Below, one piece after another: positions 19,195-43,953 of a stretch of DNA of 64,000 nt. A model generated the notes under the pieces. It worked only from the letters and a program-made list of their open reading frames with translations. It did not search any database and was not told where the DNA came from. Positions within the stretch are counted from its first letter, which is position 1; each line of letters starts with the position of its first letter. Source of the DNA: an uncultured Rivularia sp. (GTDB lineage: Bacteria > Cyanobacteriota > Cyanobacteriia > Cyanobacteriales > Nostocaceae); assembly GCA_963665115.1 (NCBI GenBank), contig OY762007.1, forward strand, positions 1,408,001 to 1,472,000, read 5' to 3'. Both the position numbers and the translations under genes were made by a program.

Positions 19195-19283
19195 TTTATA
19201 ATTACCAATTACCAATTACCAATTACCAATTACCAATTACCAATTACCAATCCCCAATTACCAATTACCAATTCTTAACTAAA

Positions 19284-20489: not shown

Positions 20490-20615
20490 ATTGGGCATGG
20501 GTAATTGGTAATTGGTAATTGGTAATTGGTAATTGGTAATTATAAATTAAATTTCCCCCCCCTCTCCCCCCTCTCCCCCATCTTCCCCCTCTTCCCCCTC
20601 TCTCCCCTCTCCATC

Positions 20616-22073: not shown

Positions 22074-22290
22074 GGTGAAAAAGTAAAAGTTCGCAATAAG
22101 TTAACAGTTAACAATTAACAAAATTTGACAGCCATACAATAAGTTTATAAATCAATACAAACTCAAACGTATTTCTTAGCTCATATATCTAAAAAAAAAG
22201 TGCCTGATAAGCATATATAGAACCATCTAATTTCATGGTTCTAATTTTATATGTATTGCAAGATGTAACCTAATTATTCTATTTACTTAC

Positions 22291-23422: not shown

Positions 23423-24664
23423 CTAATCCCACTCTAATTTAAGACTTGCATAACCACGGTCTATTAATGTGGGAACACGATTTAATTCTTGGTTGGGAGT
23501 AATTCGTAAATTAGGCAATCTCTGAGATAATACTTCTAAAGTAATACGCGTTTCTCGACGAGCTAAGTCGAAACCCGTACAGTGATGTTTTCCATGACTG
23601 AATGCGAGATGGTTGACCGGAGCGTCTTTGAAACGTTCGATATCAAAGCGTTCGCTATCTTTGAATTGCTCGGAATCCCGGTTTGCTGAACCGAAAAGTA
23701 AAACCACCCGGCTATCTTTTGGTATTGTCGTTCCTGATACACTAACTTCTTGAGTGGTAACTCGAACCATTGATTGAACTGGTGTATCGTATCTCAGGAC
23801 TTCTTCAAGAGCAATGGGAATCAATGATGGATTTTCGTGTAAACTTTGCCATGTTTTCTGATCTTCTACTAACAGTTTGATTGCGGTTTCAATTAAACTT
23901 GCAGTTGTCTTATGTCCGGCTATAATAACTTCACATAAAAGTAAAACTTGTTCCGGTAATGTGAGGTCGCTGCTTTGTAGTTGGCCGATTAAATCGTTGC
24001 TAGGAGTGGAACTTTGTTTTTCGATTAAGCTAGCAAAATAATATTGTAACTCAACAAAGCTTTTAGCACATTCGATTTGACGTTCCGGTGTTAAAGGTGT
24101 TGAAAATAAAGCTGAGGTGCTATTTCCACAATGTTTTACGAATTCCATTTTTTCTAAAGGTACTCCGCACATTGTAAAAATAACTTCGAGGGGTAGTGGA
24201 TGAGCAAATTGCGATACGATTTCTACTTTGCCATCATTAATAAAATTATCTACCAATCTCGACGTAATAGTACGAATGGAGTCTTCTTCTTTGATCAGCC
24301 GCTCTGGTGCGAATGCTTTTGCAAAAGGAGTGCGTAACCGTTTATGTTGTTTCCCATCGCTATTAATTACTGAAACGAAGGGAAATCCTTGATGCATCAC
24401 TTCTATCACTTCTGGAGTTAAATCTCCAGCATTCTGAAGACTCTTAGCTGAAGAATATATTTTAGGATTTTTTAATATATTTAAAACATCTTCGTATCTT
24501 GTTATTACGTAAGCTTTCAATAATTCGCTGTAAAATACTGGTTGCTCATTTCTGGCACGTTGATAAAACGGATAGGGATTTTCAAGTTGTGGATTGGAAA
24601 AAGGTTGATATTCTTCTCCTGCATGAAAAGGGCAAATATTCTTTGTCATTTTATTGGTATCCAT
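23423..24664 (-). CDS. Cytochrome P450 (paralog A)
   Basis: EEVLRYD (ExxR), SANRD, heme motif FSHGKHHCTG; I-helix AGHKTT. Confidence 0.95.
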   Translation of the reverse strand: MDTNKMTKNICPFHAGEEYQPFSNPQLENPYPFYQRARNEQPVFYSELLKAYVITRYEDVLNILKNPKIYSSAKSLQNAGDLTPEVIEVMHQGFPFVSVINSDGKQHKRLRTPFAKAFAPERLIKEEDSIRTITSRLVDNFINDGKVEIVSQFAHPLPLEVIFTMCGVPLEKMEFVKHCGNSTSALFSTPLTPERQIECAKSFVELQYYFASLIEKQSSTPSNDLIGQLQSSDLTLPEQVLLLCEVIIAGHKTTASLIETAIKLLVEDQKTWQSLHENPSLIPIALEEVLRYDTPVQSMVRVTTQEVSVSGTTIPKDSRVVLLFGSANRDSEQFKDSERFDIERFKDAPVNHLAFSHGKHHCTGFDLARRETRITLEVLSQRLPNLRITPNQELNRVPTLIDRGYASLKLEWD

Positions 24665-24752
24665 TGTTCAATAGTATGAAAGTTTATTAATAGTTTTTAG
24701 CGATTCCAGATTCTGCATACCTCTTTAAACTTATAGAGGTGTAAATTTTCAA

Positions 24753-25304
24753 TTATTCATTGACGCTTGAAGATTGTGAAGTTTGAACGTTGATAGAGGT
24801 ATTACCTTTGGCTTTACTTAAACCATGCATCATCATAAAAGCGCCTAAGAGGATAAACACGCTTACAGTTCTCAAACCTATAGTTGCTAAAATTTCCATC
24901 CAAAATACTCCTCCGGGATAACCCTTGGCGGTAACGACAAAGCTTTGGGTAAGACCAAATATGGCAGCAAAAACTTGGATTGTAAGACCTGTGTAGGCAC
25001 TGGGGACAAAAAACCAAAATAATAGTTTAGTCCGTAATTGGGTGAAGCAACCGTAGGGAATAGCCATCCCCACAGCCATAGTCAGCAGTCCTAACATTAC
25101 GCCCAAAGTATGAGCAGAAAGTCCTCCTCTGGGATTGATATAAAAAGGTATGAACAAAGGTGCAATACAGCCTAATGAAAAAATACTAAAACCATGCCAT
25201 AGAAATCTACGTCGATACTCCCCAATCTCAAGTTGGCTCAATAAATTGGGCGTTGTAGATGATGAATTTATATTATTAGTTTGGTCAAATGTATTAGCTT
25301 GCAT
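24753..25304 (-). CDS. Four-TM membrane protein resembling styrene-oxide isomerase StyC-like family
   Basis: RRFLWHGFSI and NPRGGLSAHTLGVMLGLLTMAVGMAIP resemble StyC helices 1-2 including the His; similarity judged from memory. Confidence 0.5.
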   Translation of the reverse strand: MQANTFDQTNNINSSSTTPNLLSQLEIGEYRRRFLWHGFSIFSLGCIAPLFIPFYINPRGGLSAHTLGVMLGLLTMAVGMAIPYGCFTQLRTKLLFWFFVPSAYTGLTIQVFAAIFGLTQSFVVTAKGYPGGVFWMEILATIGLRTVSVFILLGAFMMMHGLSKAKGNTSINVQTSQSSSVNE

Positions 25305-25354
25305 TTTTTACCTCAAATGATTATTTGTTATTGTTCAATTGTAGAAATCGGAAA

Positions 25355-26377
25355 TTACCCATGCTGACATTCAATAATGGTGCAGGGGGATTGAGTTTTT
25401 ATAATGTTGGTAACTTGTAAACCTGCTTTTTGTGCAAGTTTTACCAACTCATCTTGAGTGCGTACCCACGCCCCTGGATGGGTAATTAACAACTGCAAAT
25501 CTAGAAAGGTTGCAAAAGATGATTCTTGAGAACAAACAATCGGATCTATAATTAATAGTCTGCTATCCTTGGGCATCGCCTGTTTACAGTTGCATAAAAT
25601 TTTTATGGCTTGTTCGTCGTTCCAATTGTGGATAATTTGCTTGAGAACATAAATATTCCCTCCCGTGGGTACGGAAGTAAAAAAGTCTCCCTCAACCATC
25701 TCATAGCTTTTATGACTACTGGCTTGATTCCGGGCAATAACTGATGGTAGTTCAAATAAAACACCACTCATGGTAGAGTCAGCTTCTAAAATCGAAACTA
25801 ATAAACTTCCGTCTCCCCCGCCCAAATCAATTATTTTAGACTCGGAGGGGAAATCATAAGCTGCTAAGACAGCACGATTAATAATAGTGGAATAGTTTTT
25901 TAATCCCGCTTTGAAAGTCGCAAACTGTTCTGGATTTTGCTTGAAGTAGTCAGGCAGCGGCATTCCTAATTGAGCGCTTACACCAGAAGCCCCAGTTTTG
26001 AGGGCAGTAAACATACCTCCCCAAGCCTGCCATAACCATTGCTCGCCTTCTAAGATAACCGCATCACGTACCGAATCTGGAAAATCCGATTGCAAATATT
26101 CCGTCATCTGGGTGTTGGCAAAGTATGAAGGAGCGGATTCGGTAAAAATACCGTTACTTGCTAAGGCTCGCAGTATACGATATAGAGATTGGGTTTCGAC
26201 TTCTGTAGATTGGGCTAGCTCATCGATAGCTTTTGCACCATCTTTGAGTAAATCGGCAATGCCAAGTTTAGCGGCAACGTAAATTCCTTGACTAATGTGA
26301 TGACCAGTTAGCATTTGCATTAACTGTTCGGGAAATTGTTTTACGTTTTTGTCATCGCTCGTTTTGAGTGTAAACAT
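25355..26377 (-). CDS. SAM-dependent O-/N-methyltransferase (Methyltransf_2 with dimerisation domain)
   Basis: IYVAAKLGIADLL, IIDLGGGDG, GDFF, LKQIIHNWND. Confidence 0.93.
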   Translation of the reverse strand: MFTLKTSDDKNVKQFPEQLMQMLTGHHISQGIYVAAKLGIADLLKDGAKAIDELAQSTEVETQSLYRILRALASNGIFTESAPSYFANTQMTEYLQSDFPDSVRDAVILEGEQWLWQAWGGMFTALKTGASGVSAQLGMPLPDYFKQNPEQFATFKAGLKNYSTIINRAVLAAYDFPSESKIIDLGGGDGSLLVSILEADSTMSGVLFELPSVIARNQASSHKSYEMVEGDFFTSVPTGGNIYVLKQIIHNWNDEQAIKILCNCKQAMPKDSRLLIIDPIVCSQESSFATFLDLQLLITHPGAWVRTQDELVKLAQKAGLQVTNIIKTQSPCTIIECQHG

Positions 26378-26596
26378 TTTAATTAGTATTTCATAAGTGA
26401 ATTACGACAGATTATGGTTAGCGATATTTAATGTATTCGCGTTTGCCTTACTGGTTTATTTACCGCTTTATATTAGTAGAGGTAGGTTTTTTTATTTATG
26501 CTCCATTTCTATTTGAAATAACTACGATTCTCCGGAGCATCCCAATTGTGGAAAAATGCAAATTTGGGATGCTCCTTGATTCTCTTCAAAGCTGCA

Positions 26597-27844
26597 TTAA
26601 TCCCACTCTAAATTAAGACTTAGATAACCACGATTGGTTAATATTGGCGAATGATGCAATTCTTGGTTAGGAGTAATTCGTAAATTTGGCAATCTTTGAG
26701 ATAGTACTTCCAGAGAAATTCTTACTTCTCTTCGAGCCAGGTTGAAACCCGTACAGTGATGGGTTCCGTGACCAAATGCTAAATGGTCAACCGGAGCATC
26801 TTTGAAACGTTCGATATCGAAGCGATCGCCATTTTCATACTTTTGAGAATCTCGGTTAGCCGAAGCATATTGTATAAGCAAGCGACTATCTTCAGGGATT
26901 GTTACTCCTGAGATGGTGACTTCTTGAGTTGCAACCCGAACCATTGATTGGGCTGGTGAATCGTATCGGAGTACTTCTTCGAGAGCTATAGGAATCATTG
27001 ATGGGTTTTGATGTAAGCTTTGCCATGTATCTGGATTATCTAAAAGTAATTTCAAAGCTTTACTCATTAAATTTGCACTGGTTTTATGTCCGGCTATAAT
27101 CATTTCACATAACAGTAAACCGATTTCCATTGCTGTCAGTTCGCTTGTTAGTAATTCACTAATTAAGTCGTCACCGGGAGCCGAACGTCGTTTTTCGACT
27201 AAACTTACTATGTAATGCTGTAAAGTAACAAAACTTCTAGCGCATTCTATTTGACGTTCTGGTGTTAATTTTGACGAGAAGAACAGCCCTACATCATTAC
27301 CACTCTTTTTTACCTGTTCCATCTTTTCTAAAGGTATCCCATACATACTTAAGATGACTTCGAGGGGTAATGGATGACCAAATTTTGATACAATTTCTAC
27401 ACTGCCATCATTAATAAAATTATCTACTAATCTATTCGCGATCGCATAAATTGAATCTTCTTTTTTAGCTAAGTTCTCTGGTGCAAATACTTTGAGAAAA
27501 GGGGCACGCAAACGTCTATGTTGTTCGCCATCACTATTAATTAAAGATGTAAAAGGAAAGCCTTCTTCTAATACTTTTTGGGTTTCTGGAGTCACATTTT
27601 GAGCGGTTTGCAGACTTTTCGCTGATGAAAATACTGTAGGACTTTTAAGGATATGTAATACATCTTCGTACCGTGTAATTACATAAGCATCTACCACCGG
27701 GCTATAAAATACAGGTTGTTCATTTCTGGCTCTTTGTAAAAATGGGTAAGGATTTTCAAGTTGCTCCCCAACAAAAGGTTGAAATTCTTTTCCATGAAAC
27801 GGACAAGCACTAGTCGCAGATTGTGTCTTATTTTGTTCAATCAT
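26597..27844 (-). CDS. Cytochrome P450 (paralog B, close to 23423..24664)
   Basis: EEVLRYD, FGHGTHHCTG, I-helix AGHKTS; long near-identical blocks with paralog A. Confidence 0.95.
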   Translation of the reverse strand: MIEQNKTQSATSACPFHGKEFQPFVGEQLENPYPFLQRARNEQPVFYSPVVDAYVITRYEDVLHILKSPTVFSSAKSLQTAQNVTPETQKVLEEGFPFTSLINSDGEQHRRLRAPFLKVFAPENLAKKEDSIYAIANRLVDNFINDGSVEIVSKFGHPLPLEVILSMYGIPLEKMEQVKKSGNDVGLFFSSKLTPERQIECARSFVTLQHYIVSLVEKRRSAPGDDLISELLTSELTAMEIGLLLCEMIIAGHKTSANLMSKALKLLLDNPDTWQSLHQNPSMIPIALEEVLRYDSPAQSMVRVATQEVTISGVTIPEDSRLLIQYASANRDSQKYENGDRFDIERFKDAPVDHLAFGHGTHHCTGFNLARREVRISLEVLSQRLPNLRITPNQELHHSPILTNRGYLSLNLEWD

Positions 27845-27924
27845 TTCTATTTATTGGTAGTTGGTAATTGGTCAAAGGTCACAAATATTAACTAACTATC
27901 TGTAATTCTGTTCTTAATTAATCT

Positions 27925-27953
27925 ATAGGGGTGAGAAAATTTATTTATGCAAT
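27925..27953 (-). promoter_or_regulatory. Shared upstream motif TTGCATAA-N16-CTAT
   Basis: ATTGCATAAATAAATTTTCTCACCCCTAT, ~80 bp upstream of P450 paralog B. Confidence 0.6.
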
Positions 27954-28100
27954 CAATCTGCTGTAAATTATTCAATTATTTCAACTTCTCCTACAGTTTT
28001 TTCTATTACCACTATTAACTAAAAATCCCTACATCTTTATTAGACAACGGAGGGGGTAGAAATCCAATTACCAACTCCCAATGCCCAATCCCCAATTTAT

Positions 28101-29381
28101 TCATACACTATCGTGTCCCCACAAACCTTTTGCATCCCTGGGCGAACTAAAGCCTACTTGTAAATGCTTTGGCCCGTGGAAGACTATATTATTTGCCCAT
28201 TCAATTGATTCTTCTTTCAAAGTCAAATTCGGCAATCGATTTATTAAAGTGTTTAATGCAATGGTGACTTCAGCACGGGCTAAACTTGAACCCAAGCAGA
28301 AATGAATACCGCTTCCGAAACCGCTATGCTTAGTTGCTTCTCGTTGAAAATTTAATTCGTCGGGGTTTTCAAACTGTTCCTCATCTCTATTAGCGGAACC
28401 CAAAATCAAACCAACGCTATCGCCGCGCTTAATTATCTTCCCGTCAATTTCAAAATCTTCATAAGCCCAACGACTAACCATTTGCACCGGGGAATCATAT
28501 CGAACCAACTCTTCTACTGCTGCGGGAATTAATTCGGGGTGCGATCGCAACAGTTTCAACTGCTTGGGATGACGCAATAGAGCCAATATTCCCTTACTTA
28601 TCAAATTAACTGTAGTTTCGTGACCTGCTGTTAATAAGTGTATGCAGGTAGCTAATATTTCCTCGTCATTTAATTTATTTCCTTCATCTCTTGCCTTAAC
28701 TAAAGCTGTAATTAAATCCTTTCCCGGCTCAACGTGTCTTTTAGCAATTTCCTTTTTGAAATATTCAATAAATCCTTGAGTTGCTGCTTCAGCTTGTTCG
28801 TACACTTCCGGGGATGGTGTCAAACGACTGGCGCTAGCGTGTTGTAGAGCTAAGGCCCATTGTCGGAATAGTGGTCTGTCCTTGGGGTCAACACCCAACA
28901 TATCGGCAATTACCATAATCGGTAAAGGGAAAGCAAAATCTTCAACTAAATCCATTTCCCCTTGCAGATGAACTTTATCTAATAGACAATCAGCTATTCC
29001 GATAATGGCAGGCCTCAAATTTTCCACCATCTTGGCAGAAAATACTTTATTAACAATAGTTCTTAATCTTGTATGAGTTGGTGGATCTCGGAACACCATC
29101 CAATTACTCACCATCGAACTAAATCCCCGATAAGCCTTCGGTACGGGTGCCCCTTCACCATCATCTCGTACCTTGCTAGCTTCTCTACCAAACTTCGGAC
29201 TTTCCATTACTTTCATCACATCCCGGTATCGGAATAGATACCAAGCACCATCTAATTTAGGATTTGCAGAAAGCCCCCAATGTACTGGATCTTCTTTTCT
29301 ATAAAGACTGTAATAAGTATAAGGGTCGCTAATTACTTCTTTGACAAATGGATTTAATCTTTCAATTGTAGAAATTGACAT
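28101..29381 (-). CDS. staP: StaP/RebP-like cytochrome P450 (CYP245-type indolocarbazole aryl-aryl coupling)
   Basis: Shares StaP-characteristic segments as recalled: NWMVFRDPP, ALQHAS, EAATQGFIEYF, TCIHLLTAGHETT, VQMVSRWAYED, IVFHGP; heme motif FGSGIHFCLG. Confidence 0.82.
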   Translation of the reverse strand: MSISTIERLNPFVKEVISDPYTYYSLYRKEDPVHWGLSANPKLDGAWYLFRYRDVMKVMESPKFGREASKVRDDGEGAPVPKAYRGFSSMVSNWMVFRDPPTHTRLRTIVNKVFSAKMVENLRPAIIGIADCLLDKVHLQGEMDLVEDFAFPLPIMVIADMLGVDPKDRPLFRQWALALQHASASRLTPSPEVYEQAEAATQGFIEYFKKEIAKRHVEPGKDLITALVKARDEGNKLNDEEILATCIHLLTAGHETTVNLISKGILALLRHPKQLKLLRSHPELIPAAVEELVRYDSPVQMVSRWAYEDFEIDGKIIKRGDSVGLILGSANRDEEQFENPDELNFQREATKHSGFGSGIHFCLGSSLARAEVTIALNTLINRLPNLTLKEESIEWANNIVFHGPKHLQVGFSSPRDAKGLWGHDSV

Positions 29382-29417
29382 TTTTGCTCGCAGAGATTTT
29401 TTATTCCTTATTTATTC

Positions 29418-29448
29418 ATAGGGGGTGAGGGGTTGGAGATTATGCAAT
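29418..29448 (-). promoter_or_regulatory. Shared upstream motif TTGCATAA-N18-CTAT
   Basis: ATTGCATAATCTCCAACCCCTCACCCCCTAT, ~37 bp upstream of the staP-like gene. Confidence 0.6.
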
Positions 29449-29723
29449 TTTTAGTTGGGAGTTAGGAGTTAGGAGTTAGGAGTTAGGTATTAAGAATGAA
29501 AAAATTAGTTTGTAGGTTGGGTTAAAAGCACGAATAATATGTCTGCTCCCACTCAATATTTAACTCACGCTTTTAACCCAACATCCAGATTTTGGTTATA
29601 GATTATGAAGTGGCGATCGCCGCATTATGGTGATGTTGGTTAATTTTATTTTTCGGAGCCAGATGGTAAGTGCGTCTTTAACCCAACTTACTTTCCTATT
29701 TTCTATACAACCTCAAATACAAG

Positions 29724-29748
29724 AGAGACGTAGCAGTGCTACGTCTCT
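29724..29748. repeat. REP-like palindrome AGAGACGTAGCAGTGCTACGTCTCT
   Basis: 12-bp perfect arms; identical copy at 57625-57649. Confidence 0.8.
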
Positions 29749-29821
29749 ACAACATGGTGGGTTATTTACGAATAATTTTATTTCTGTTCCCCGTTCCCTT
29801 TTTCTGTAATTATCATATATG

Positions 29822-31059
29822 CTAAAATTTACCAGATTTGACATTGATGAATAAGCTGAAGATTACGATTGAGATTATACTCACAGCAGCACCGATGAAA
29901 CAAACTGCTGCGATTCCTCCGATACCAAATATGATTCCTGCAAATACCGGGGGCCGATTGCTCTACCAAGTGATTGAGTTGTGACGTTGAGAGACATGAA
30001 ACCAGAACGGTATTCTTGAGGAGCAAGTTTAGCGATGGATGATTGAAGGGTAGGAAATGCTAGAGCTTCAACTAATCCGATGAGTACAGAGGGGATTACC
30101 AACATAGGAATTGAATCAACTGTGGGAATGATGCATAAAGCAACTGCGAAGATGACGAAGGATACTTGAATTAATTTGATTTCAGAAACTTTGTGAGCGA
30201 ATAAGGTGACGAAGAAGGAGAAGACTGCTAAAGATAAAGCGTTTGTCGTTAATACCATTCCAATTACCGCGCTCGTTGCTCCCAGATTCTCTCCTGCGAA
30301 GACTGGAGTGAAGGTATAGAATGCTCCAAATTCAACCATGAATAAGGTAATTACCGCAGAAAACAACAGTAAAACATTTCGATTTTGAATACTTTTAAAT
30401 ATATTTTTAACGTAGCTACCAAGTTGAAATTTCTCAGTATGCTTTTGTGTTTTAGGCAATTTAAGTTTTAAGCCTACTAGTAATGCAACCGGAATAGCTA
30501 ATAATGATAGTGCGAACGGGTATCTCCAATTTAAAGAAGCTAACACTCCTCCTAACATAGGATAAATAGTTGAACCCACACCGATTGCACCTCCATTGAA
30601 AGCCATTGCAGCCGTTAATTTGTTCCCACTATATGAGCTACTAATTATTGAAAGTACCAGAGCCTCTAAAGAAGCACCACCAAGTCCCTGTAAAATTCTC
30701 CATTCTATAAGAGAGCGGAAGTTGGGAGCGAAAGCACATAAAACACCACCCAGAGCAAATACAAGTAAGGAAGGAATCAAAATTTTCTTAAAGCCAAAAC
30801 GGTCAGCTAAAACCCCGAATATTGGTGTTCCAATTGCAACTGGCATTAGATAAGCTGCCATAATCAATCCCGATTGTTGGGGAGAAATATTTAATCCTGT
30901 AGCTATAGTAGAAAGAATTGGACTTATGCTGAACAAAGGCATAATTGCTATCATCGTTATACTGACAACAAATAACAGATTTTTATCTTGAAAAATATTG
31001 CCTTTTGATTGTTCTGCTCTACCTGCTTGAGAATTAATTGGTTTTAATGGTGTAGTCAT
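29822..31059 (-). CDS. MFS transporter (probable exporter), frameshift at C/G run ~29949-29953
   Basis: MFS motif A GVLADRFGFK, WRILQGLG. Another frame supplies the last TMs GPVFAGIIFGIGGIAAVCFIGAAVSIISIVIFSLF...KF* ending at 29822. Confidence 0.9.
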
Positions 31060-31117
31060 TTTCCTTATTTACCTTAGTATTTTTTTCTAATTGATTTGTT
31101 TTTTGCGTTATTAATTC

Positions 31118-31143
31118 ATAGGGAATAAGAAAAATATTTATGC
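31118..31143 (-). promoter_or_regulatory. Shared upstream motif GCATAA-N16-CTAT
   Basis: GCATAAATATTTTTCTTATTCCCTAT, ~59 bp upstream of the MFS gene. Confidence 0.5.
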
Positions 31144-31524
31144 TTTCGATATAGCTTGAGCTAAAATTATTTTTATGCATACACCACCTAATTCTTTACT
31201 CAGTAAAGGTTTTAACTATATATTGCGAAATGTTAATACATCAAGCAGAGTCTTTTAATAAGTAGTTATAAGAATAAAAAAAACTGCGTCTATTTGTTTG
31301 ACGCAGGCTTAAAAATAATATTGGTTTAAAACTTAGTATTCCACCACACTAATTTTAAAGGGTTCGTAGTAGCGTGCCCGCCAGGGCATAGCGCTACTAC
31401 GAACCTAATTTATTGCAATCGGAATTACAGCAAGTGCCATAACACACCCTACTCTAGACGTAATAATCTCTTTTCTTTACACTGATGAGATAAAGAAATA
31501 AATTTTCATTTATAGAGATGATTT

Positions 31525-32385
31525 ATGGTTGCGTCAATTAAACGAGTTGCTTTAGTCGGTGGAACTCATGGTGGGGAACTTACGGGAGTATTTTTAGTTA
31601 ATAAATTTCAACAATCTCCGCAACTGATTCAACGAGATGGGATTGAAACAATTAGTTTAATTGCTAACGAAAAAGCTGTTGCTATAGGGACAAGATATAT
31701 AGATACAGATTTGAATCGAGCTTTCAACCGTCAAGAATTAGAAAATCCCCAATTAACCAATCACGAGCAATCATTAGCCAAAAAAATAACTCGCCGAATT
31801 AAAGAAGAGAAAATTGATTTAATCATTGACTTGCACAGCACAACAGCAAATATGGGATTAACGATAATTTTGCACTCGAATCATCCTTATTTAACCAAAT
31901 TGGCTGCATATCTTACACAAATTAATTCTAAAGTCAGAATATTACAACACACTCTTAATAAAGAATCATCTTACTTGATAAGCTCAGCGGAATTCGGAAT
32001 CACCATCGAAGTGGGAGCAGTTGCCAATGGTTTATTGGATGCAAAATTATTTCAAGAAACCGAGAATTTAGTTCACGCTATTTTAGATTATCTCGAAGCC
32101 GAGAACAAAGGACAACCGTTATCAACTCCCCCCAGTTTTACTAAATATTCTGCCATCGGAACAGTTGATTTTCCCAGAAATGAGCAAGGAGAAATCCAAG
32201 CTATGATTCACCCCCAATTGCAATTTCAAGATTACCAACCTTTACATCCCGGCAATCCAATATTTATTACCTTTGATGGAGAAGAAATTTTTTATCAAGG
32301 AAATGAAACGGTATATCCGGTATTTATCAATGAAGCAGCATATTACGAAAAAGGAACTGCTATGTGTTTGACAGTGAGCAATTAG
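31525..32385 (+). CDS. Aspartoacylase (AstE/AspA family)
   Basis: GGTHGGE, RYIDTDLNRAF, DLHSTT, IEVG, PVFINEAAYYEK. Confidence 0.92.
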   Translation: MVASIKRVALVGGTHGGELTGVFLVNKFQQSPQLIQRDGIETISLIANEKAVAIGTRYIDTDLNRAFNRQELENPQLTNHEQSLAKKITRRIKEEKIDLIIDLHSTTANMGLTIILHSNHPYLTKLAAYLTQINSKVRILQHTLNKESSYLISSAEFGITIEVGAVANGLLDAKLFQETENLVHAILDYLEAENKGQPLSTPPSFTKYSAIGTVDFPRNEQGEIQAMIHPQLQFQDYQPLHPGNPIFITFDGEEIFYQGNETVYPVFINEAAYYEKGTAMCLTVSN

Positions 32386-32480
32386 GAGTTAGGAGTTAAG
32401 AGTTAGGAATTAAGAGTTAGTTTCACCTTGTCCCCCCATCTCCCTCTCTCCCCATCTCCCCATCTCCCCCTCTCCATTAA

Positions 32481-32514
32481 TAAAAAGCGGGTTAAATAAT
32501 CAACCCGCTTTTTA
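32481..32514. terminator. Bidirectional intrinsic terminator
   Basis: taaaaagcgggtt-aaataatc-aacccgcttttta between convergent genes. Confidence 0.75.
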
Positions 32515-32532
32515 ATCATCTGAAATTTAAGT

Positions 32533-32748
32533 TTAAGCAGCAGGAGCGCCTAATTTAGGACCAGTTTCGGCTCCAACAACTCCATCTACCGTTACATTGT
32601 TATCCTTTTGAAATGCTTTGACTGCATTTTCGGTAGCTTCGTCGAAGTTTCCATCAACGTTAAGTTGATATCCTTTTGCAGATAAGTCCTTTTGTAAGCG
32701 TTCTACTTCCGAACCATTCATTCCACGACTTAAAGTTTGTGGTGCCAT
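32533..32748 (-). CDS. Stand-alone peptidoglycan-binding domain protein (PG_binding_1)
   Basis: LSRGMNGSEVERLQKDL, DGNFDEATENAVKAFQ, VDGVVGAET; RBS GGAG. Confidence 0.88.
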   Translation of the reverse strand: MAPQTLSRGMNGSEVERLQKDLSAKGYQLNVDGNFDEATENAVKAFQKDNNVTVDGVVGAETGPKLGAPAA

Positions 32749-32818
32749 TTTTAAATTCTCCTTTTTTAATTAATTGATAGTTAACTGTTTGGGGTTAACT
32801 TGCTGTCTTATTAAATAT

Positions 32819-32848
32819 GTAGGGATGGGGTTATTTGGTTTATGCAAT
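32819..32848 (-). promoter_or_regulatory. Shared upstream motif TTGCATAA-N17-CTAC
   Basis: ATTGCATAAACCAAATAACCCCATCCCTAC, ~71 bp upstream of the PG-binding gene. Confidence 0.5.
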
Positions 32849-32973
32849 TTTGAAATCAATTATCAGTGAGCAGTTAGCAGTGAGCAATTTAAAATAATCT
32901 ATTCTCCCCCCTCTTCCCCCTCTCCCATCATTTATAATTCCACTAACACTTTCATCATGGAGATACAGGTAAA

Positions 32974-33270
32974 ATGACCGATCAATCGAATGCATTTGTG
33001 CAAATCAATGAAGACGATAGTGCATTTGTCACTACCGATAAAGGAACTGCATATGTTTCTGATGAAATGAATGTTGTTTTGGAAGAGGTGATGCTCGAAG
33101 TGGTAAATTCTGCTAAATCTATTCAATCTCTCGATCCAGAAATTAGTCAAGTTGAAGCTCATAGCATTTTAGTAAAAGTGATGTCCAATTTTTTTGCCAA
33201 ACTTGAAGATGATACGCAAGCTAAAACCGAAATATTAAATTTAATTCAAGAATTTAAGAATAATCGTTAA
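32974..33270 (+). CDS. Hypothetical acidic protein
   Basis: 98-aa ORF with AGGT RBS-like site and plausible helical composition; no family recognised. Confidence 0.6.
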   Translation: MTDQSNAFVQINEDDSAFVTTDKGTAYVSDEMNVVLEEVMLEVVNSAKSIQSLDPEISQVEAHSILVKVMSNFFAKLEDDTQAKTEILNLIQEFKNNR

Positions 33271-33344
33271 TCAACATAAATTTGTTTTATGGGGGATATT
33301 ATTCTTCCCTATTTAGACTCGCGACGATTAAACTAAATAATAAT

Positions 33345-34172
33345 ATGAGTATAAATTTAAAGGATGATCCAAGAAGCACGGAAGAAATAATTCAACTAGC
33401 TTCTAATGAAGAAAATGAGCATATTTACTGGGATTATGTTTCTATTTTAAATTTCCGTGGTAGTGATAAAGAATTTATAGCCGCGTCAATATTATGTGAA
33501 AGTCAAAGTGCAAAAGAAAGAAGTTTAGGAGTTCGTATATTATCACAATTAGGAATACCGGAAAGAACTTTTCTCGTTCAATCTGGAGATATTCTTTTAA
33601 AGTTATTATTGACTGAAGAAAATAACAGTGTTTTGGCTTCGATAGGATTTGCATTCGGACATTTACATGATTCCAGAGGTATTTTACCTTTAATAAAATT
33701 GAAAAATCATCACGATGCCGATGTGCGGATGGGTGTTGTTTCTGGTTTAAGCCAACAAGAGGATGAATTAGCAATTCAAGCATTAATTGATTTATCCAGC
33801 GATGAAGAAGAAGATATCAGAAATTGGGCAACTTTTGGTTTGGGTTCCCAGATAGAAGCCGATACATCAGCTATTCGAGATGCTTTGTTTGCTCGGGTAA
33901 TTTCAGAAACAGCAGATTCGGATACTATCGCTGAAATTCGTGGTGAAGCATTAGTAGGTTTAGCAATTAGAAAAGATCGACGGGTAATTGATCCGTTAAT
34001 TTCAGAGCTTGAAAACCGGCGTGTTGGTATATTAACCGTTGAAGCAGCCAAAGAAATCGGAGATGCAAGACTTTATCAAGCTTTAATTAATTTACAGGAA
34101 TGGTGGGATATGAATATTGAGTTACTGCAAGAGGCAATATCTAGTTGTAATCCTAAAATCGGTTTAAATTAA
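33345..34172 (+). CDS. HEAT-repeat (PBS-lyase-like) protein
   Basis: DADVRMGVVSGL, DIRNWATFGLG, EIRGEALVGLA repeats; likely start ATG 33345. Confidence 0.85.
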   Translation: MSINLKDDPRSTEEIIQLASNEENEHIYWDYVSILNFRGSDKEFIAASILCESQSAKERSLGVRILSQLGIPERTFLVQSGDILLKLLLTEENNSVLASIGFAFGHLHDSRGILPLIKLKNHHDADVRMGVVSGLSQQEDELAIQALIDLSSDEEEDIRNWATFGLGSQIEADTSAIRDALFARVISETADSDTIAEIRGEALVGLAIRKDRRVIDPLISELENRRVGILTVEAAKEIGDARLYQALINLQEWWDMNIELLQEAISSCNPKIGLN

Positions 34173-34312
34173 TTTTCCACGGCAACTTTGCTTCATTCTT
34201 GAAATCGAAACGGCATTTATCTGCTTATCAATTAAAACCTCTATATTCTAAGCTTATTGTAAAATCCGATAAATTAAAGCTGTAATCAACCAACAATCAT
34301 TTTTAAATTTTC

Positions 34313-34673
34313 ATGGAATTTCAAGACATCAGTTTAATTAGCGGATACCACGCTCACGTTTATTTTGATGAATCCACGTGCGAACAAGCAACGGTTTTAT
34401 GTGAGGAAGCAGGAAAGCAATTTTCAGTACAAGTAGGTAGAGTACATCGTAAGAATGTAGGCCCCTCATCCCTGTTGGAGTTGTCAGCTGGCTTTTGATA
34501 AAAATCAATATGCCGATTTAATGACTTGGCTGGCTTTGAATAGAAAAGGTTTAACAATTTTAATTCATCCACTCACCGGAGATGATTTAATCGATCATAC
34601 CGATTACGCTTCTTGGATGGGAGAGCAGCAGGTTTTGAATCTTGATTTTTTACGTGGTTTACAAAAGTCGTAG
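34313..34673 (+). CDS. DOPA 4,5-dioxygenase family protein, frameshift at C run ~34463-34466
   Basis: YHAHVYFD then, after removing one C, GPHPCWSCQLAF...WLALNRKGLTILIHPLTG...DHT...WMG. Confidence 0.88.
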
Positions 34674-34871
34674 AAATTAGGGAGAGGGGGAGATTGGGGG
34701 GATGGGGGGATGGGGAGATGGGGAGATGGTGAATCCACTCTCGTGCGCGGGTTCCCCGCGTTGAGAGAAGTGGTGAACCCGTTCACGCGGAGCGTGCGGC
34801 TCAGGGGGAGATGGGGGGGGGACAAGGAGACAAGGAGACAAGGGAAAATAACTCGCTACTCCAATGCCCAA

Positions 34872-35534
34872 TTACCAATTACTTATTACCGGATATTTCA
34901 ATGTAGATAACATCTGTTTCATTTGCTCTCTTCCAGATGCAAAGACTTTTGCAACAGATGGTTTCTCCGACAACCTTTTAAAATAAGCTGTCAAATTCTT
35001 TAAATGTTGGTAATCGTAAACAATTCGTAGATAAGAAAGAGTAGGGGCAGCGCTGCAATCGGAAGCAGTAAACGCATCCCCTACCAACCAATTACGACTT
35101 GCTAGTTTTTCATCAAGTAAATTACAAGCTGACTCTAATAATCCCTTGGCTTTGATAACTTCCTTACTACCTCTTTCGTTGGGCGATCGCTGACTATCCT
35201 TAAATAATGCTTCTCTTCCCCCATTAACGTAAACATCAATAATCCGTTCGAGCATTCGCATTTCTAAATTTGCGTTAATATCCTTGGGAATTAAGGGAAT
35301 TTGGTTTTGATAGCTGTCGAGATATTCAATTATGATGCTTGCTTCTAAAAGTATTTCCCCATCATCCGTTATTAGAGTCGGGATTTTACCAAAGCGATTT
35401 ATCTGTAAGTATTCATTTCTCGATTCTGCATCAAATAAGTTTATTTCAATAGGGGTAAATTCTAACTCTTTTTCGTTCATAGCGATTAATACCCGTTGGG
35501 AATAGGAAGAAGCTGGTGCGTAATAGAGTTTCAT
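34872..35534 (-). CDS. Glutathione S-transferase
   Basis: LYYAPASSYSQRV, FGKIPTL, EASIIIEYLD, WLVGDAFTASD. Confidence 0.92.
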   Translation of the reverse strand: MKLYYAPASSYSQRVLIAMNEKELEFTPIEINLFDAESRNEYLQINRFGKIPTLITDDGEILLEASIIIEYLDSYQNQIPLIPKDINANLEMRMLERIIDVYVNGGREALFKDSQRSPNERGSKEVIKAKGLLESACNLLDEKLASRNWLVGDAFTASDCSAAPTLSYLRIVYDYQHLKNLTAYFKRLSEKPSVAKVFASGREQMKQMLSTLKYPVISNW

Positions 35535-35548
35535 TATGATTATTTTCC

Positions 35549-35719
35549 TTAATTTTTAACTACTCTTGGATTAATTAACCGCAGAGGGCGCTGAGGGCGC
35601 TGAGGAAGAGGGGGAGAGAGAGAGGAAGATTTAATAATTAATTTTTAACTACTCTTGGATTAATTAACCGCAGAGGGCGCTGAGGGCGCGGAGGAAGAAG
35701 GGGAGAGAGAGGAGGAAGA
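35549..35719. repeat. ~80-bp direct tandem duplication between the synthase and GST genes
   Basis: ttaatttttaactactcttggattaattaaccgcagagggcgctgagggcgc.gaggaaga... at 35549 and 35638. Confidence 0.85.
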
Positions 35720-35735
35720 AATAATTTTTAACTGG

Positions 35736-38700
35736 TTACTGGTTACTGTTCACTGAAAAAAAGTTATCGTAAAAATCAAACATTTGTGAAACGGCTTCGG
35801 GGATAACTTCGCAGTTATGAGAACGTTTTGCTAAAATTCCGAATTGATTTGATATTGTTGAAGCTGCAATTTCTGGATTAGGAATATATTCGGGTGTGGG
35901 AATATCAAAGGATGGCCCTGCTGTTTTTCCGCGTTTACCCGAAGGTAGGGTCATTAATAGTTCTCCCAAGGGACGCATCATTCCTGTCATAATATCTATG
36001 CTGGCGTTCATTAGTTTGGAGCGTCTTAAGCTTCCTTGGGGATTTGAACCGAAGTGTTGAACCATTAATTGCATCATCAGGAAGTAACTTTGGTTGAATA
36101 TTTCCATCACTGTTCTGGTTTGGGGAACGGTAACAACGTTGGAATTATGGTCTTGATGATTCAAGCTGGGATTACGAACAGATGGGTATGAAGGATTCCA
36201 AGTTCTTTTTTCTCCTTTTTTAGATTGATTAATTTGTTCTAAAGAAAGAGCGTCTGCTAAATTGCGGAATTTTTGATAATGGGATTTTGCAAATGTTTCT
36301 GTTTCAATTTCGCTTCCTTCTCCATGTTCTACAATTACGTCTACTGCAAATAAGGCGCTTTTAACGTCATACACCTGCATTTGATAATCTGGATGTTGTT
36401 TATTCAAGTTGTCTCGCATGAATAAACGGTGTTCTCCACCAACTTTGTTTTTATCAACTGTAAATAAGTCGGGAATATTTTGTAATCCATCGCGGATTTG
36501 ACCGTACAATTCGCTTAAGGAACCATATGTATGTAACTGTTCCGATATCGGAATAGTTTCGTTTACAAGGTCTTCGTTAAGAAAATCGGGCATTTCCAAC
36601 CGCATAAAATACTGTAGTGATAAAGCATTTAATGGTTCTAAAGCAAAGTCAATATCTATGGGGAATTTGGCGTTGAGTTGTTTGAAATCGGGAACTGCTG
36701 GATAAAATGGTTCGGCGATCGCCATCAATATATTGTTAACTAAAAGAAAATGAATCATTTCTTCGCGGGCAATTTCCATTAATACTCCCCGCATTCCATA
36801 ATTATCAACTTCTTTGTTATCACCACAAGCTAAATGTAATTGTTCTTGCGTCCATAATCCCCGACGAACGTATTCTTCCCCAGTGACGTAGTTGGGAACC
36901 GAATATCCGGCGTAGATATATTGCAGCATCACGGCAACTTCTAATTCTGCTGCTTGTTTTAATGCTGTGATTAATTCTTCTTTGGTTTTAATTTGATATT
37001 TAGTTTGCTCTGGTTGTTTCTGTTCCGATGGCGGAATATAACCAATTTGCTGTTGATTTTGCAGAAATTTGAGTAAAAGTTGTGATTTAGCTTCGGACAT
37101 ATCTCTTGTGGGGGGCATATAGTAAGTTTTGCTTTTATTTTTGGGGTCGGACATCTGCCACATTAAGCGAGCGTAGGTAGCAACTTTGCATTTATCTGCC
37201 AAGCTAAAAACTTCGGCTTTCATAAACGAGAAGCTGGCTTCGTAGAAAGATAATATATGTTCGTAAATTAAATTAAAATCAACATCTTGTTGCGGAATTT
37301 TATCTAAGTGCCAATCATCACCCATGACTCTTACAGCTAAGAAGCCGGAACTGTTCCAAAATCCCAGTTTATTATCGTTGTCGTAAGCAATTTCCGCTTC
37401 ATCTAAGTTATCGTAGCCACAAGCAATCTCGTTTAAGGAATTAGAAATTAATATTTTGCAAGTTCCGGCTTTGGCTCCTTTTAAAGTAAACCAACCTCTT
37501 CCTTGTTTATTGGTGGAAATTTCGCAACTTGAATTAAATTCTCCTTTATCTAAAAGTTTTCCAGGTTTTAAGCCAACGATTTGAATTTCTGAGCTATGAG
37601 GATAATGAAAAGTTTTATCTGTATTATTACTATCCCTTTCAAATTGATATCGTAATTGAGGAAAAGCTCTAGGATTATAAAATTGATTTACATATATTGA
37701 CTGTACCGATGTCGGAACACCTCTAACAAAAGAGCGCACTTCTAATTCAACAGCGTTATCTTCTCCTTTATCAAGGTTGGGAAATTCGACAAATAAACAA
37801 GCGTCATCAACTTGAAGATTAATTTCCTTCTCTTTTACTAAAACTCTTCTTTCACCATCAACGGTTCCGATAATACACAAACCTTGATTTTCAACGTCAG
37901 AACGTAAATCTTGCCAATTTTTAGAGGGGTAAAAAGGAATATCTACCAAACCGCTAGTTAACTGATGAGCTTGCTTGTTGTATGCTTCTGAAGGGATTTT
38001 TCCGATTAATCTATGACTGTTAACGGTACGAATTTCTAAATCACCTAAATTCAACTTTGAAAAAATCTTGTGAAATCCAGCTTTAGATTCAGGCGATCGC
38101 CCTACATTAGGAATCGCTGTAATCATATTTAAGCTTATCCCCTGAGAATTTAACTTCAACGTCAGATTCCCGATTGCTTTATATTCCGATTCGGGAATTA
38201 ATAACCTTCCACTGGGATAAGTTTTCAATTCCGAAAGACACCATAAACCAATAGTTCCATGTAATTCCCAGAAACTTGGTGCATCAGGTTGAACTGGTGC
38301 AGACATATTGCTGATACTAAACTGCACCACCAAACCCAAAACGTCTTCTCGCTGCATCGCTTCCTTTAACAAAGCAACCGTGGGAGAAATATTTACCTCA
38401 TCATTCCAGAGAAAATCTTCAGCATCCTTGGAAATAGCAAACTGATAAACAGCAGCTTTGCCAAACTCATCATTTAAAATATGGTCTGGTAAATCGCGAA
38501 TATAATCAAAATCTTGCCAGCGAGCTAACTGATAACCTTGTATCGGGGCAGTTACCATATAAGGAACTTGATTGGAATCACCCAACCTACCAAAAGCTAA
38601 CTGACCTAACATAATCGTATTAGTCCAATTAGAAGCCGGGGTCGCATTCAAATATCCTGGCACGATTGACGCTGGTTTTTACATACTCGTTATAATGACC

Positions 38701-39054
38701 CCAAAAATCAACGCTTCTGCCAATAACCGGGTCATTTAAATTAACTTTGCCAAACTCTGTTTGAGTACTAGTAATTTTGGCATCAATTGAAAAATGACCG
38801 TTACCACCGAAATTCCAACCCATTGCTTTACTAAAAGGGCCATTTTCATCTAATTTCCCTTCAGCATTAAATTTTGGGCCTTGATTATAAAGATATTCGT
38901 GATATTCCGAAGCCGAATGATTTTCTTTATAAGGAAGACCATTCATATAACAGGTATTGTCGCTGATGTCGATTAAACCGTTTTTATATCCCGTAGGGGC
39001 ATGAATGCGGGCTAAACCTTGGAAATGTAAGCGAGGGAAATCTAAAACGCTCAT
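35736..39054 (-). CDS. staD: Chromopyrrolic acid synthase family (StaD/RebD/VioB) heme protein, ~1105 aa, frameshift at ~38638-38641
   Basis: N-terminus MSVLDFPRLHF...APTG..NGLID, GPFSKAMGWNFGGNGHF, YYMPPTRD, ferritin-like AAELEVAVMLQYIYA/EEMIH, GKTAGPSF. The two ORFs join as FECDPASNWT after removing one C. Confidence 0.9.
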
Positions 39055-39104
39055 GTTAATTGATTATCTATATATATAGCAATTTCAACTTGTCCTATAT
39101 TTAT

Positions 39105-39134
39105 ATAGAGGTGAGCGGAGGGGGATTATGCAAT
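39105..39134 (-). promoter_or_regulatory. Shared upstream motif TTGCATAA-N17-CTAT
   Basis: ATTGCATAATCCCCCTCCGCTCACCTCTAT, ~51 bp upstream of the staD-like gene. Confidence 0.6.
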
Positions 39135-39255: not shown

Positions 39256-40371
39256 ATGCTCCGACGTACTCGCAAGAAGTCAAGTGCTTCTTCATCTAAC
39301 TTAAAATGGTCGTCAAAAACTGAGTTAGTTGGCTTAGAATTTGAGTTATCGCCAGAAAAAGATGGTTATCTTTTCCCACAGTACACTATTGGACTCCATG
39401 CTTGGTTTTTGGATCAAGTACGGCAAGTGGACGCAGAATTTTCTACTTATCTCCATAATGGAGAGTCAGAAAAACCTTTTACCGTCTCTGCTTTCAATGG
39501 AGAAATGATTAGTAGCGGTAGACAAATTCAAGTATTTGCGAATAATAAATATCGCTGGTATCTCACTGCTTTATCTCAACCACTACAGCAATGGATGGCA
39601 GAATGGGTAAAAAAAATGCCTTCTACGATTGATTTACGGACTGTAAGTTTTAAAATTAATGCTTGTAATATTGTTCATGCTCCCACAACTTATGCTCAGT
39701 TGTTAAAGTCGGAAGATAATAAAAATATCACTTTAAAATTTATCAGCCCTACTAGTTTTCGTCGCAAAGGACATCATTTTCCCCTACCATTACCTACGAA
39801 TATTTTTCATAGCTATCTGCGACGCTGGAATAATTTTTCTGGGATTACTTTTGAGCAAGATGATTTTTTGGCTTGGGTGGATGAATGTGTATTGGTAAAT
39901 CGCTGTCAAATCTCAACCGATAAAGTATTGGCAGGTAAAAAAGGAGCGGTGACGGGATTCACTGGTGCAATTGAATTGAGTTTAACTAGAGAAGCAGCCA
40001 AACAACCACAATATCAACAATTATTCTACGCTCTAGGAAAACTCGCACCCTATTGCGGAACCGGACATAAAACCACCTTTGGATTGGGGCAAACCCGGTT
40101 AGGATGGACATCAAAAGTTGTACAAGATATACCCGAAGTAGAAAACCTACTAGCTAAACGCATCGAAGATTTAACAGAAACTTTCAAAGCACAACGCAAG
40201 CGCACCGGGGGAAACAGAGCTAGCGAAATTGCTTCAAAATGGGCGACAATTTTAGCAAGACGAGAAATGGGAGATTCTTTACAAGCAATTGCCCAAGATT
40301 TAGAGATGCCTTACGAAACCGTGAAAACTTATGCTAAGTTAGCGCGACGGGAGTTGAAAAAGCTGGAGTAG
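39256..40371 (+). CDS. cas6: CRISPR endoribonuclease Cas6 with C-terminal HTH-like extension
   Basis: LHAWFL, KPFTVS, FISPTSFR, G-loop YCGTGHKTTFGLG, then ~90 extra aa ending SLQAIAQDLEMPYETVKTY. Confidence 0.93.
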   Translation: MLRRTRKKSSASSSNLKWSSKTELVGLEFELSPEKDGYLFPQYTIGLHAWFLDQVRQVDAEFSTYLHNGESEKPFTVSAFNGEMISSGRQIQVFANNKYRWYLTALSQPLQQWMAEWVKKMPSTIDLRTVSFKINACNIVHAPTTYAQLLKSEDNKNITLKFISPTSFRRKGHHFPLPLPTNIFHSYLRRWNNFSGITFEQDDFLAWVDECVLVNRCQISTDKVLAGKKGAVTGFTGAIELSLTREAAKQPQYQQLFYALGKLAPYCGTGHKTTFGLGQTRLGWTSKVVQDIPEVENLLAKRIEDLTETFKAQRKRTGGNRASEIASKWATILARREMGDSLQAIAQDLEMPYETVKTYAKLARRELKKLE

Positions 40372-40399
40372 TTTTGTATACTTTGTTTTATTGAAATCC

Positions 40400-40668
40400 G
40401 AACCTTGAAAAATGAATATTAAGTTTCCTGGTGAAAGCGAATGTGTTTATGTTTGCTGTTCACACGCAAGTTTTTAGCGGAGGTATGGCGATGTTTGAAA
40501 CGCTTATTCTTCCGTTACCCCCCGCTAATTGCCTGCTATATGGTGCTTTGAAGATGGTGCTTGGGTTAGTTTTTATCGATAATTTTGGTTTGTTGGTAGT
40601 TAAGTTACACCCCCCCGCTAAAATGGCACCTTGGAATCCAGTTATAGTAAGGGTTCTGGAATGGTAGG
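40400..40668 (+). promoter_or_regulatory. CRISPR leader 1
   Basis: Adjacent to the first repeat; colinear and highly similar to the reverse complement of 52144-52411. Confidence 0.85.
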
Positions 40669-41210
40669 GTTTTAATTCCTTTACCCCTCACGGGGATGGA
40701 AACACCTGTTAAGGTCTGACTATTTGTATTATACGCAATATGTTTTAATTCTTTAACCCCTCACGGGGATGGAAACTTTTTTGCAAAGATATCTCTTAAG
40801 ATTATCTCCAATATTAGTTTTAATTCCTTTACCCCTCACGGGGATGGAAACGTACCCGAACGTCAACATTGAAGTCAGAGTAGTAAAAAGTTTTAATTCC
40901 TTTACCCCTCACGGGGATGGAAACGTGCTAAGATTAGGATCACGAACGTAGGTTTTTTTGTTTTAATTCCTTTACCCCTCACGGGGATGGAAACAAGAAA
41001 ACCCTCTCTGAACTTCCCTCTGGAAATTTCTGAGTTTTAATTCCTTTACCCCTCACGGGGATGGAAACCTTCCGTGATATCATTTAGCTTCTGAGTCAGT
41101 CTGGTTTTAATTCCTTTACCCCTCACGGGGATGGAAACGCTAGCTCACCAAACAAAACTGACATTTCAGCTTTATGTTTTAATTTCTTAACCCCTCACGG
41201 GGATTGAAAG
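40669..41210 (+). CRISPR. CRISPR array 1: 8 repeats (GTTTTAATTCCTTTACCCCTCACGGGGATGGAAAC, 35 nt), 7 spacers of 35-40 nt
   Basis: Repeats start at 40669, 40742, 40817, 40890, 40960, 41034, 41104 and 41176 (last degenerate). Confidence 0.98.
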
Positions 41211-41318
41211 AAATAAAAAATATTAACTTTAAAATAGGATAAAAAGAAAATGAATATTAAAGAGTCTATCAGCCGTATTAATATAAAGTGATTAGTACGA
41301 TGGATTATAAAATATCTT

Positions 41319-42128: not shown

Positions 42129-42163
42129 AATTTGCCTTTAACTTTTGACTTTTTTCCCGGCTA

Positions 42164-42820: not shown

Positions 42821-42835
42821 TTATTTTCCTCTAAT

Positions 42836-43918: not shown

Positions 43919-43953
43919 ATTTTTTGAGATTTTTTTAAATTAAAGTTCACAAA

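Follow-up and report, generated by a model that had tools for sequence, protein, structure and literature searches.

In 2021 Kaur et al. (PMC8195603) predicted gene neighbourhoods that combine an ECF sigma factor, a DUF1822 protein and a caspase (EACC2), and proposed that these systems are activated by proteolysis and regulate 'a multiplicity of genes'; the parts of that paper on which we draw give neither a promoter nor targets. Two other sigma factors are alike in some respects. Sigma-HetZ/PatU3 (Hu et al. 2026, PMC13342950) is described as a large cyanobacterial sigma factor with insertions, a co-encoded putative anti-sigma factor and a bipartite promoter with a 16-17 nt spacing, and sigma-AntA of the antimycin cluster (Seipke et al. 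2014, PMC3933326) is a Streptomyces orphan ECF factor, encoded within its cluster, that controls biosynthetic and precursor genes in two operons of that one cluster through conserved -35 and -10 elements. The tjipanazole, staurosporine and rebeccamycin clusters share a core of tryptophan (Trp) oxidase, chromopyrrolic acid synthase (StaD) and a StaP-type cytochrome P450, and Chilczuk et al. 2020 (PMC7497240) summarised the chemistry by which these yield the indolocarbazole core; neither 'promoter' nor 'regulat' occurs in the main text of that paper. Here we describe a bipartite motif, TGCATAA-N17(16)-CTA-NNN-A, that precedes predicted indolocarbazole genes in a 64,000-nt stretch (the window; contig OY762007.1, positions 1,408,001 to 1,472,000) of an uncultured Rivularia sp., and we suggest that it is probably the promoter of a family of sigma-70-like factors encoded next to DUF1822 genes.

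As in the systems of PMC8195603, a sigma-like gene here lies beside a DUF1822 gene and a caspase-family gene; EACC2 is the caspase-side domain of that paper, and the linked protease here is known by its Peptidase_C14 match. Unlike in the consulted parts of that paper, a promoter can be inferred here, and its putative targets include a natural-product pathway. HetZ was rejected as the reader because the boxes attributed to it, TCCGGA and TGnA (PMC13342950), differ from the motif. No homology was detected either, as HHalign gave 1.4% (no detectable profile similarity, although the profiles were shallow) and BLAST an E-value of 0.15 against the class A sigma factors described below, and this genome encodes HetZ in separate genes. 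In contrast to sigma-AntA, the sigma factor here is large and paired with DUF1822 and caspase genes, its motif is common to paralogues and its putative targets are chromosome-wide. Relative to the clusters of PMC7497240, the present one lacks StaC/RebC and a halogenase, its genes are dispersed, and they include those for two additional P450s, for an O-methyltransferase and for a peptidoglycan (PG)-binding protein. The sigma/DUF1822/caspase module was thus already catalogued, and cluster-situated sigma factors were known in Streptomyces (PMC3933326). What is new is that a candidate promoter class is coupled to the supply of precursors as well as to the natural-product pathway that uses them, that a sigma clade is linked to that pathway, and that putative promoter copies stand before the fragments of a broken cluster. 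In a literature search, mostly of titles and abstracts and otherwise of main texts, neither this promoter nor the regulation of a cyanobacterial indolocarbazole cluster was found reported, and no published product for this pathway was found.

The first-pass annotation of the window had reported the motif, as GCATAA-N16-18-CTAT, upstream of five genes and a weaker copy upstream of a sixth. All six sites were found where it had placed them, on the minus strand, and the CTCACC that it had seen before the second box was present in three; the distances to the start codon had been given as 37-81 bp, and the gaps from box end to start codon were one base shorter (36-80). The site before the O-methyltransferase gene is a seventh, which it had overlooked. 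The pattern GCATAA-N14-20-CTAY matched the window nine times, always on the minus strand and twice inside genes, against 2.3 ± 1.5 matches in 100 shuffles, none of which reached nine. We seeded a matrix on six window sites, iterated it and scanned the intergenic DNA of the whole genome, a single 8.69-Mb contig; gene calls were crude (6,903 open reading frames (ORFs) of at least 80 aa), so that small genes counted as intergenic. Intergenic matches to the matrix numbered 41 for spacer 17, 15 for spacer 16 and 9 for spacer 18, and at each spacer about five of these 65 would be noise; the eight control spacers gave 2-12 apiece. The exact pattern GCATAA-Nn-CTAY behaved similarly, with 31 of 40 matches at n=17 intergenic and 4-13 intergenic matches at spacers outside 16-18. 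The motif is real and extends beyond the window.

For the relatives, the matrix was retrained without the window sites (on 59 of the 65 matches). One scan gave 49 staP loci, of which 48 were analysed after a 32% match was dropped: 22 Rivularia-type, 14 Nostoc/Scytonema-type and 12 in a third group. These groups were drawn after the motif map had been seen, and kin among them are not independent. In the relatives, 87 sites had the sense orientation and lay 15-252 nt upstream, with a median of 49, while three matches were antisense; the spacer of the 87 was 17 nt in 64 sites, 16 in 22 and 18 in one. Over the 87 sites the consensus was TGCATAA, a spacer of 17 or 16, and a C-rich CC-CTA-NNN-A, in which the fourth base of the CTAT box was loose and the A three bases on was fixed. 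The spacer sequences were diverse while the boxes were fixed, and no dyad or direct repeat was found in the motif. Two boxes at a fixed spacing of 16-18 nt, directional upstream of co-oriented genes, are as expected of an alternative sigma-70 promoter. In the Rivularia genome, 32 of 45 strong sites pointed toward a co-oriented gene, nine were opposite and four had none, whereas random intergenic points divided 2132:1828. The -35/-10 promoter for an alternative sigma factor that the first-pass annotation had envisaged is therefore supported, as far as sequence can tell, by fixed spacing, orientation and conservation across genera.

In the Rivularia-type loci, sense matches within 320 nt were found upstream of staP (19/20), the PG-binding gene (9/9), a second MFS exporter gene, MFS2 (7/7), the first, MFS1 (9/15), and P450 genes (11/28), but not upstream of the glutathione S-transferase (GST) gene (0/5), and there were no antisense matches at any of these genes. 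Control spacers of 12-14 gave 0-2 matches; those of 20-22 gave up to six (staP 6/20), because the left box alone scores high. The staO2 site was present in 7/7 relatives. In the Nostoc/Scytonema-type loci staP lies within a staD-staC-GST-staP run and had a site in just 1/14, and staD had one in 11 of the 12 loci checked, nine of these about 490 nt upstream, where the site was the best-conserved block of the upstream region. These putative Scytonema/Nostoc staD promoters (L128:3540-4140, L130, L151-L160) have a partly conserved leader, possibly a regulatory one, and in some loci the promoter itself is duplicated at a 39-nt interval. The third group comprises loci of Fischerella, Chlorogloeopsis and Chamaesiphon together with some of Nostoc/Anabaena; of its 72 upstream regions one scored, a count that is partly circular given how the group was drawn. 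The PG-binding gene occurred in 22 of the 48 staP loci, often directly after a P450 gene, and in none of the third group, which bears out the earlier suggestion that it belongs with the pathway; from its conserved position and its own putative promoter, we argue that its product is part of the same response. This gene was amplified to 3-5 tandem copies in L151 and L157-L160, several with their own site. Nostoc-type clusters (L128:11930-12901 and related loci) also include a gene for a Rieske oxygenase and one of the glyoxalase family, both absent from the Rivularia genome, which implies different products.

Outside the window, the genome-wide scan that the first-pass annotation had recommended recovered the missing Trp oxidase by matrix and indicated a regulator family in the form of the DUF1822-paired sigma loci; a second oxidase has a GTAT variant, which escaped the scan. 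Both oxidases are 59-64% identical to oxidases inside the intact clusters of relatives. Trp oxidase, StaD and StaP, the core of the sta, reb and tjp pathways, are all present in the genome. Genes of precursor supply and MFS2 also have sites (Table 1), although recruitment of aroC specifically to the pathway was not supported, its site being genus-wide. The motif is not private to the cluster, being common to the whole DUF1822-paired sigma family. Further sites in this genome precede genes for TPR-CHAT and CHAT-AAA proteins, two TPS exoproteins, two lipoxygenases, a CVNH protein, a GMC oxidase, a glycosyltransferase and a kinase. A stand-alone UDP-glycosyltransferase gene (L018:3847-5121, 6.73 Mb) with a strong site 48 nt upstream had no homologue in related clusters and was not assigned to the pathway. 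Between trpB and trpD of the pathway-linked trp block lies an iron-uptake-type porin in two ORFs (L001:12908-14561).

All 12 DUF1822 genes of the genome have an upstream partner gene, of 215-511 aa, and five of these partners match TIGR02937. Seven are long (~395-511 aa) and five short (215-375 aa). Of the 45 strong sites, eight are found no more than 5 kb from one of the seven long sigma loci, where 0.36 would be expected, and the short partners were rejected as readers because none of the 45 lies near them. The long sigma factors comprise class A and class B, which are homologous (HHalign 95.6%). Class A has TIGR02937 and sigma-4 matches; sigma-4 is clear and sigma-2 weak (E 9e-4), with a long insertion between them. 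For a class A structural model (pLDDT 77), all 50 of the Foldseek matches listed were sigma-70-family chains or models, of group 1-3 sigma factors, with TM-scores of about 0.2, and a PDB sequence search gave weak helix-turn-helix matches only. The best-scoring sigma loci were then taken from 200 genomes of the order, with this genome, one partial gene and one short flank left out, which gave 29 of class A and 27 of class B. The matrix matched upstream of 16/29 class A loci, facing away from the sigma gene, and of 12-13/27 class B loci, facing it; controls gave 0-2. Sites face the sigma gene at two linked class A loci also. Judged by eye, the base after GCATAA was A or T in 13/13 pathway sites of the Rivularia genome, and G in 3/16 class A and 9/12 class B loci. 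A class B subgroup (genome 1,607,579-1,608,898; L084, L085, L087, L088) retains TGCATAA with a second box of CAGAG/A followed by TTA or ATA, which suggests a changed -10 specificity. The caspase-family neighbour is a Peptidase_C14 protein beside the linked sigma gene and a CHAT protein at other DUF1822 loci.

The linked sigma gene, a class A member about 260 kb from the window, is flanked by MFS2, Tll0287-HAMP genes and a caspase gene, and lies beside trp genes and the first oxidase along the genome. In four of five cluster genomes staP is followed by MFS2, Tll0287-HAMP genes and a caspase gene, and then, 9-12 kb from staP, by a class A sigma gene (in the fifth the contig ends); these staP-linked sigma genes are orthologues of the Rivularia one (67-85% identity), and sigma-DUF1822 pairs are also linked in relatives. 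When 26 of the 48 cluster genomes were searched, an orthologue of at least 71% identity was found in 19/21 motif-bearing genomes, the query's own being counted, and in 0/5 motif-less ones. In a quick tree of 70 rows the linked sigma factors formed one clade (SH-aLRT 98), to which the gene of a twentieth genome was sister, and their frame was open for ~400 aa in 18/19 genomes (316 aa in G411). Within the genus, staP was found in 21/27 genomes, and the near-complete genomes G432 and G445 lacked staP, staD and the linked sigma gene together. A genome of another family, G329 (L110, C23), has a complete staO-staD-staC-GST-staP-VOC-P450-PGB cluster with the same motif, divergent from a block of CHAT, Tll0287-HAMP, class B sigma and DUF1822 genes.

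We consider it reasonably probable that the motif is the promoter (-35 TGCATAA, -10 CTA-NNN-A) of the DUF1822-adjacent family of ~400-500-aa sigma-70-like factors, and that the pathway copies are read mainly by the member that travels with the cluster. The sigma-4 helix would read TGCATAA, CTA-NNN-A would act as the -10 element, and RNA polymerase holoenzyme with the linked sigma factor would initiate some 10 nt beyond the CTAT box, consistent with 95% of the relatives' sites lying at least 23 nt before the start codon. By analogy with HetZ-PatU3 (PMC13342950) and with the proposal of PMC8195603, DUF1822 may be an anti-sigma factor that holds the sigma factor inactive until the neighbouring caspase releases it upon a signal. 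A single signal would then bring on precursor supply (DAHP synthase, aroC, trpEG and trpA), Trp oxidation, StaD and StaP, together with tailoring enzymes, exporters and the small PG-binding protein. As the Rivularia-type cluster is broken up, with staP and the exporters having their own promoter copy, such a regulon would do the job of an operon. In the sta and reb pathways, oxidase, StaD and StaP give the indolocarbazole core, and the same core is predicted here. StaC is absent, and there are the extra P450s and the O-methyltransferase. Calothrixin is one conceivable end product, on whose genes the literature search gave nothing.

That the motif instead arises by chance where intergenic DNA is AT-rich, or is a dispersed repeat or a SigA promoter of the ordinary kind, is very improbable. 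Its boxes are short, and the scores at control spacers 20-22 show what the left box can do alone, but this reading is largely refuted by the sharp spacer peak, by the sites at sigma loci and by conservation, including diverse spacers between fixed boxes and the conserved block about 490 nt upstream of staD. A SigA promoter, with a TAnnnT -10 element about 17 nt after a TTGACA-like -35, was rejected because TAnnnT occurred in 2/87 sites against TAnnnA in 82 (partly circular, as the matrix favours that A), and the SigA consensus was not enriched (40 matches against 54 in shuffles). An unlinked regulator, such as a standard cyanobacterial group 3 or 4 sigma factor or an activator, might read the motif and have both the sigma loci and the alkaloid genes as its targets. 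Linkage by itself is no proof of recognition, the sites at class A loci point away from the sigma gene, and in some genomes (G040, G107, family f35) the motif is in excess although neither class has a match at E<=1e-20. We hold this to be quite unlikely, however, because two of three such genomes examined (G121 and G180) have a more divergent long sigma-like ORF and DUF1822 right behind the motif, because motif-less clusters sit in genomes that lack the linked sigma gene and presumably still have standard sigma factors, and because the sites do face the sigma gene at class B and at two linked class A loci.

It could also be that the pathway genes carry a promoter common to the family that any paralogue may read, or that is read chiefly by class B or the other class A copies, the linked copy being dispensable or truly broken here. 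The same boxes occur at class A and class B loci, the G329 cluster is coupled to class B, the aroC site persists without the linked sigma gene, and that gene is split in this genome and reduced to a 316-aa open frame in G411. On the other hand, the linked clade co-occurs with motif-bearing clusters and has an open ~400-aa frame in 18/19 genomes, the pathway sites resemble class A and not class B in the base after GCATAA, and this assembly has many frameshifts at C/G runs; we regard the paralogue explanation as unlikely. Several observations nevertheless weigh against the linked sigma factor as main reader. In this assembly frameshifts interrupt both its gene and staD, the TM-scores are just ~0.2, and at least seven paralogues in the genome might share the motif, with recognition helices that visibly differ between classes. 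The sigma gene beside the G329 cluster is class B, and the Scytonema/Nostoc staD sites look class-B-like, with G after GCATAA. G440 has the linked sigma gene and no staD or staP was found there, while G432 and G445 keep the aroC site without the pathway or the linked sigma gene; that site is probably read by other family members or a relic. Across the 200 genomes, the exact-pattern excess tracks class A only modestly (class A alone 212 against 86 in the control, ratio 2.5) and is seen with neither class as well (244 against 140, ratio 1.7), with 9/14 families in the expected direction. Finally, the motif-less group was defined after the motif map, and kin genomes are not independent.

We compared 64 loci with the proteins of relatives. 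Nine were flagged, of which three were tandem-paralogue artefacts and six true breaks, and five of seven break points lay at C/G runs; the split genes include staD, MFS, trpA and the sigma gene. Sequencing error is the likely cause, since the breaks fall at C/G runs and the orthologous sigma gene is intact in 18/19 genomes. With about one in ten tested genes frameshifted, mostly at such runs, apparent pseudogenes in this assembly call for caution.

The alkaloid genes occupy 23.4-39.1 kb of the window (GC ~37%), all on the minus strand, and the plus-strand genes between them are unrelated (Table 1). TIGR04492 matches both pieces of StaD, which is one uninterrupted ORF of 1116-1169 aa in most relatives; combined, the pieces score below the VioB cut-off, as does the intact StaD of relatives. 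The best PDB match of the StaP-like P450 is an entry that we take to be StaP itself. The staP gene has 90-97% identity to named Rivularia, Calothrix and Richelia records, with homologues at 67-97% within staD clusters of relatives, and the PG-binding protein is 58% identical to the G329 copy. A tblastn search with the StaC-like protein of a relative found no StaC/RebC homologue in this genome, and the alkaloid cluster has no halogenase. No motif site was found upstream of the GST gene, which is likely co-transcribed with staD.

Table 1. Motif sites and genes in the window and elsewhere in the genome. Positions are those of the window unless marked genome; gap, distance from box end to start codon.
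Feature	Position	Strand	Remarks
Site before staD	39105..39134	-	spacer 17; gap 50 nt; kept before staD in relatives
Site before PG-binding gene	32819..32848	-	spacer 17, CTAC; gap 70 nt; in 9/9 Rivularia-type loci having the gene
Weaker second MFS copy	31151-31178	-	overlooked in the first-pass annotation
Site before MFS exporter	31118..31143	-	spacer 16; gap 58 nt; in 9/15 Rivularia-type loci
Site before staP	29418..29448	-	spacer 18, inside C run; gap 36 nt; relatives' 20 sites all spacer 17
Site before P450-B	27925..27953	-	spacer 16; gap 80 nt
Site before O-methyltransferase	26476..26501	-	spacer 16, CTAC; 98 nt upstream; also in L124
Weak site before P450-A	24733..24758	-	GAATAA-N16-CTAT; gap 68 nt; under genome-scan threshold
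staD/VioB-like chromopyrrolic acid synthase	35736..39054	-	split into 141-aa and 975-aa ORFs at C run near 38640
GST	34872..35534	-	adjoins staD/staP in most related loci
PG_binding_1 protein, stand-alone, 71 aa	32533..32748	-	conserved cluster member
MFS exporter	29881..31059	-	3' end looks frameshifted at C run (inferred from sequence)
StaP-like cytochrome P450	28101..29381	-	best PDB match 2z3t, E 1.8e-109
Tailoring P450-B	26597..27844	-	
O-methyltransferase	25355..26377	-	
Membrane protein, 183 aa, no Pfam family	24753..25304	-	homologues in several related clusters
Tailoring P450-A	23423..24664	-	
Second Trp oxidase	genome 1,154,116		site is GTAT variant, below scan detection
Site before DAHP synthase	genome 1,155,819		
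Site before trpEG	genome 1,158,224		
Site before trpA	genome 1,160,654		
Linked class A sigma gene	genome 1,170,288-1,171,482		~400 aa; ~260 kb from window
Site before second MFS exporter (MFS2)	genome 1,179,211		
Site before aroC	genome 5,082,587		
Site before flavin amino-acid oxidase (Trp oxidase)	genome 8,538,818		

Other features of the window were recorded. Between staD and the GST gene there is a tandem duplication of ~95 nt (35540-35730), and 34313-34498 holds a 61-aa fragment of a DOPA 4,5-dioxygenase family gene. Positions 10905-23379 look by eye like a polysaccharide cluster (chain-length protein, polymerase, flippase, several glycosyltransferases and an acyltransferase), which has no motif sites and so lies outside the regulon. 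On the other side, 39256-52143 is a CRISPR locus with Cas6 at 39256-40371 and two DR37 arrays in opposite orientations (40669-41138 and 51319-52143), between which lies a Cas10/RAMP-like operon (type judged by eye).

The motif led to both Trp oxidases and to precursor genes 250 kb to 7 Mb from the cluster. A more speculative reading, possible in our view but rather doubtful, is that the caspase-gated sigma module is a response to damage or attack with a chemical arm, comprising the alkaloid with its Trp supply, two lipoxygenases, a cyanovirin-type lectin, a cholesterol-oxidase-like enzyme, TPR-CHAT proteases and TPS exoproteins, and that the promoter was copied before the fragments as the ancestral Rivularia cluster broke up. 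If this were true, the motif could reassemble split biosynthetic pathways from sequence alone. An Escherichia coli system with Anabaena RNA polymerase has been published (PMC13342950), which makes the pairing of sigma factor and promoter directly testable. Our analysis puts forward a candidate promoter for a signalling module that is widespread in cyanobacteria, proposes a concrete output of that module, and names a likely regulator for the indolocarbazole pathway. The motif would be a handle for finding these genes and switching them on, and induction of the sigma factor might reveal the compound.

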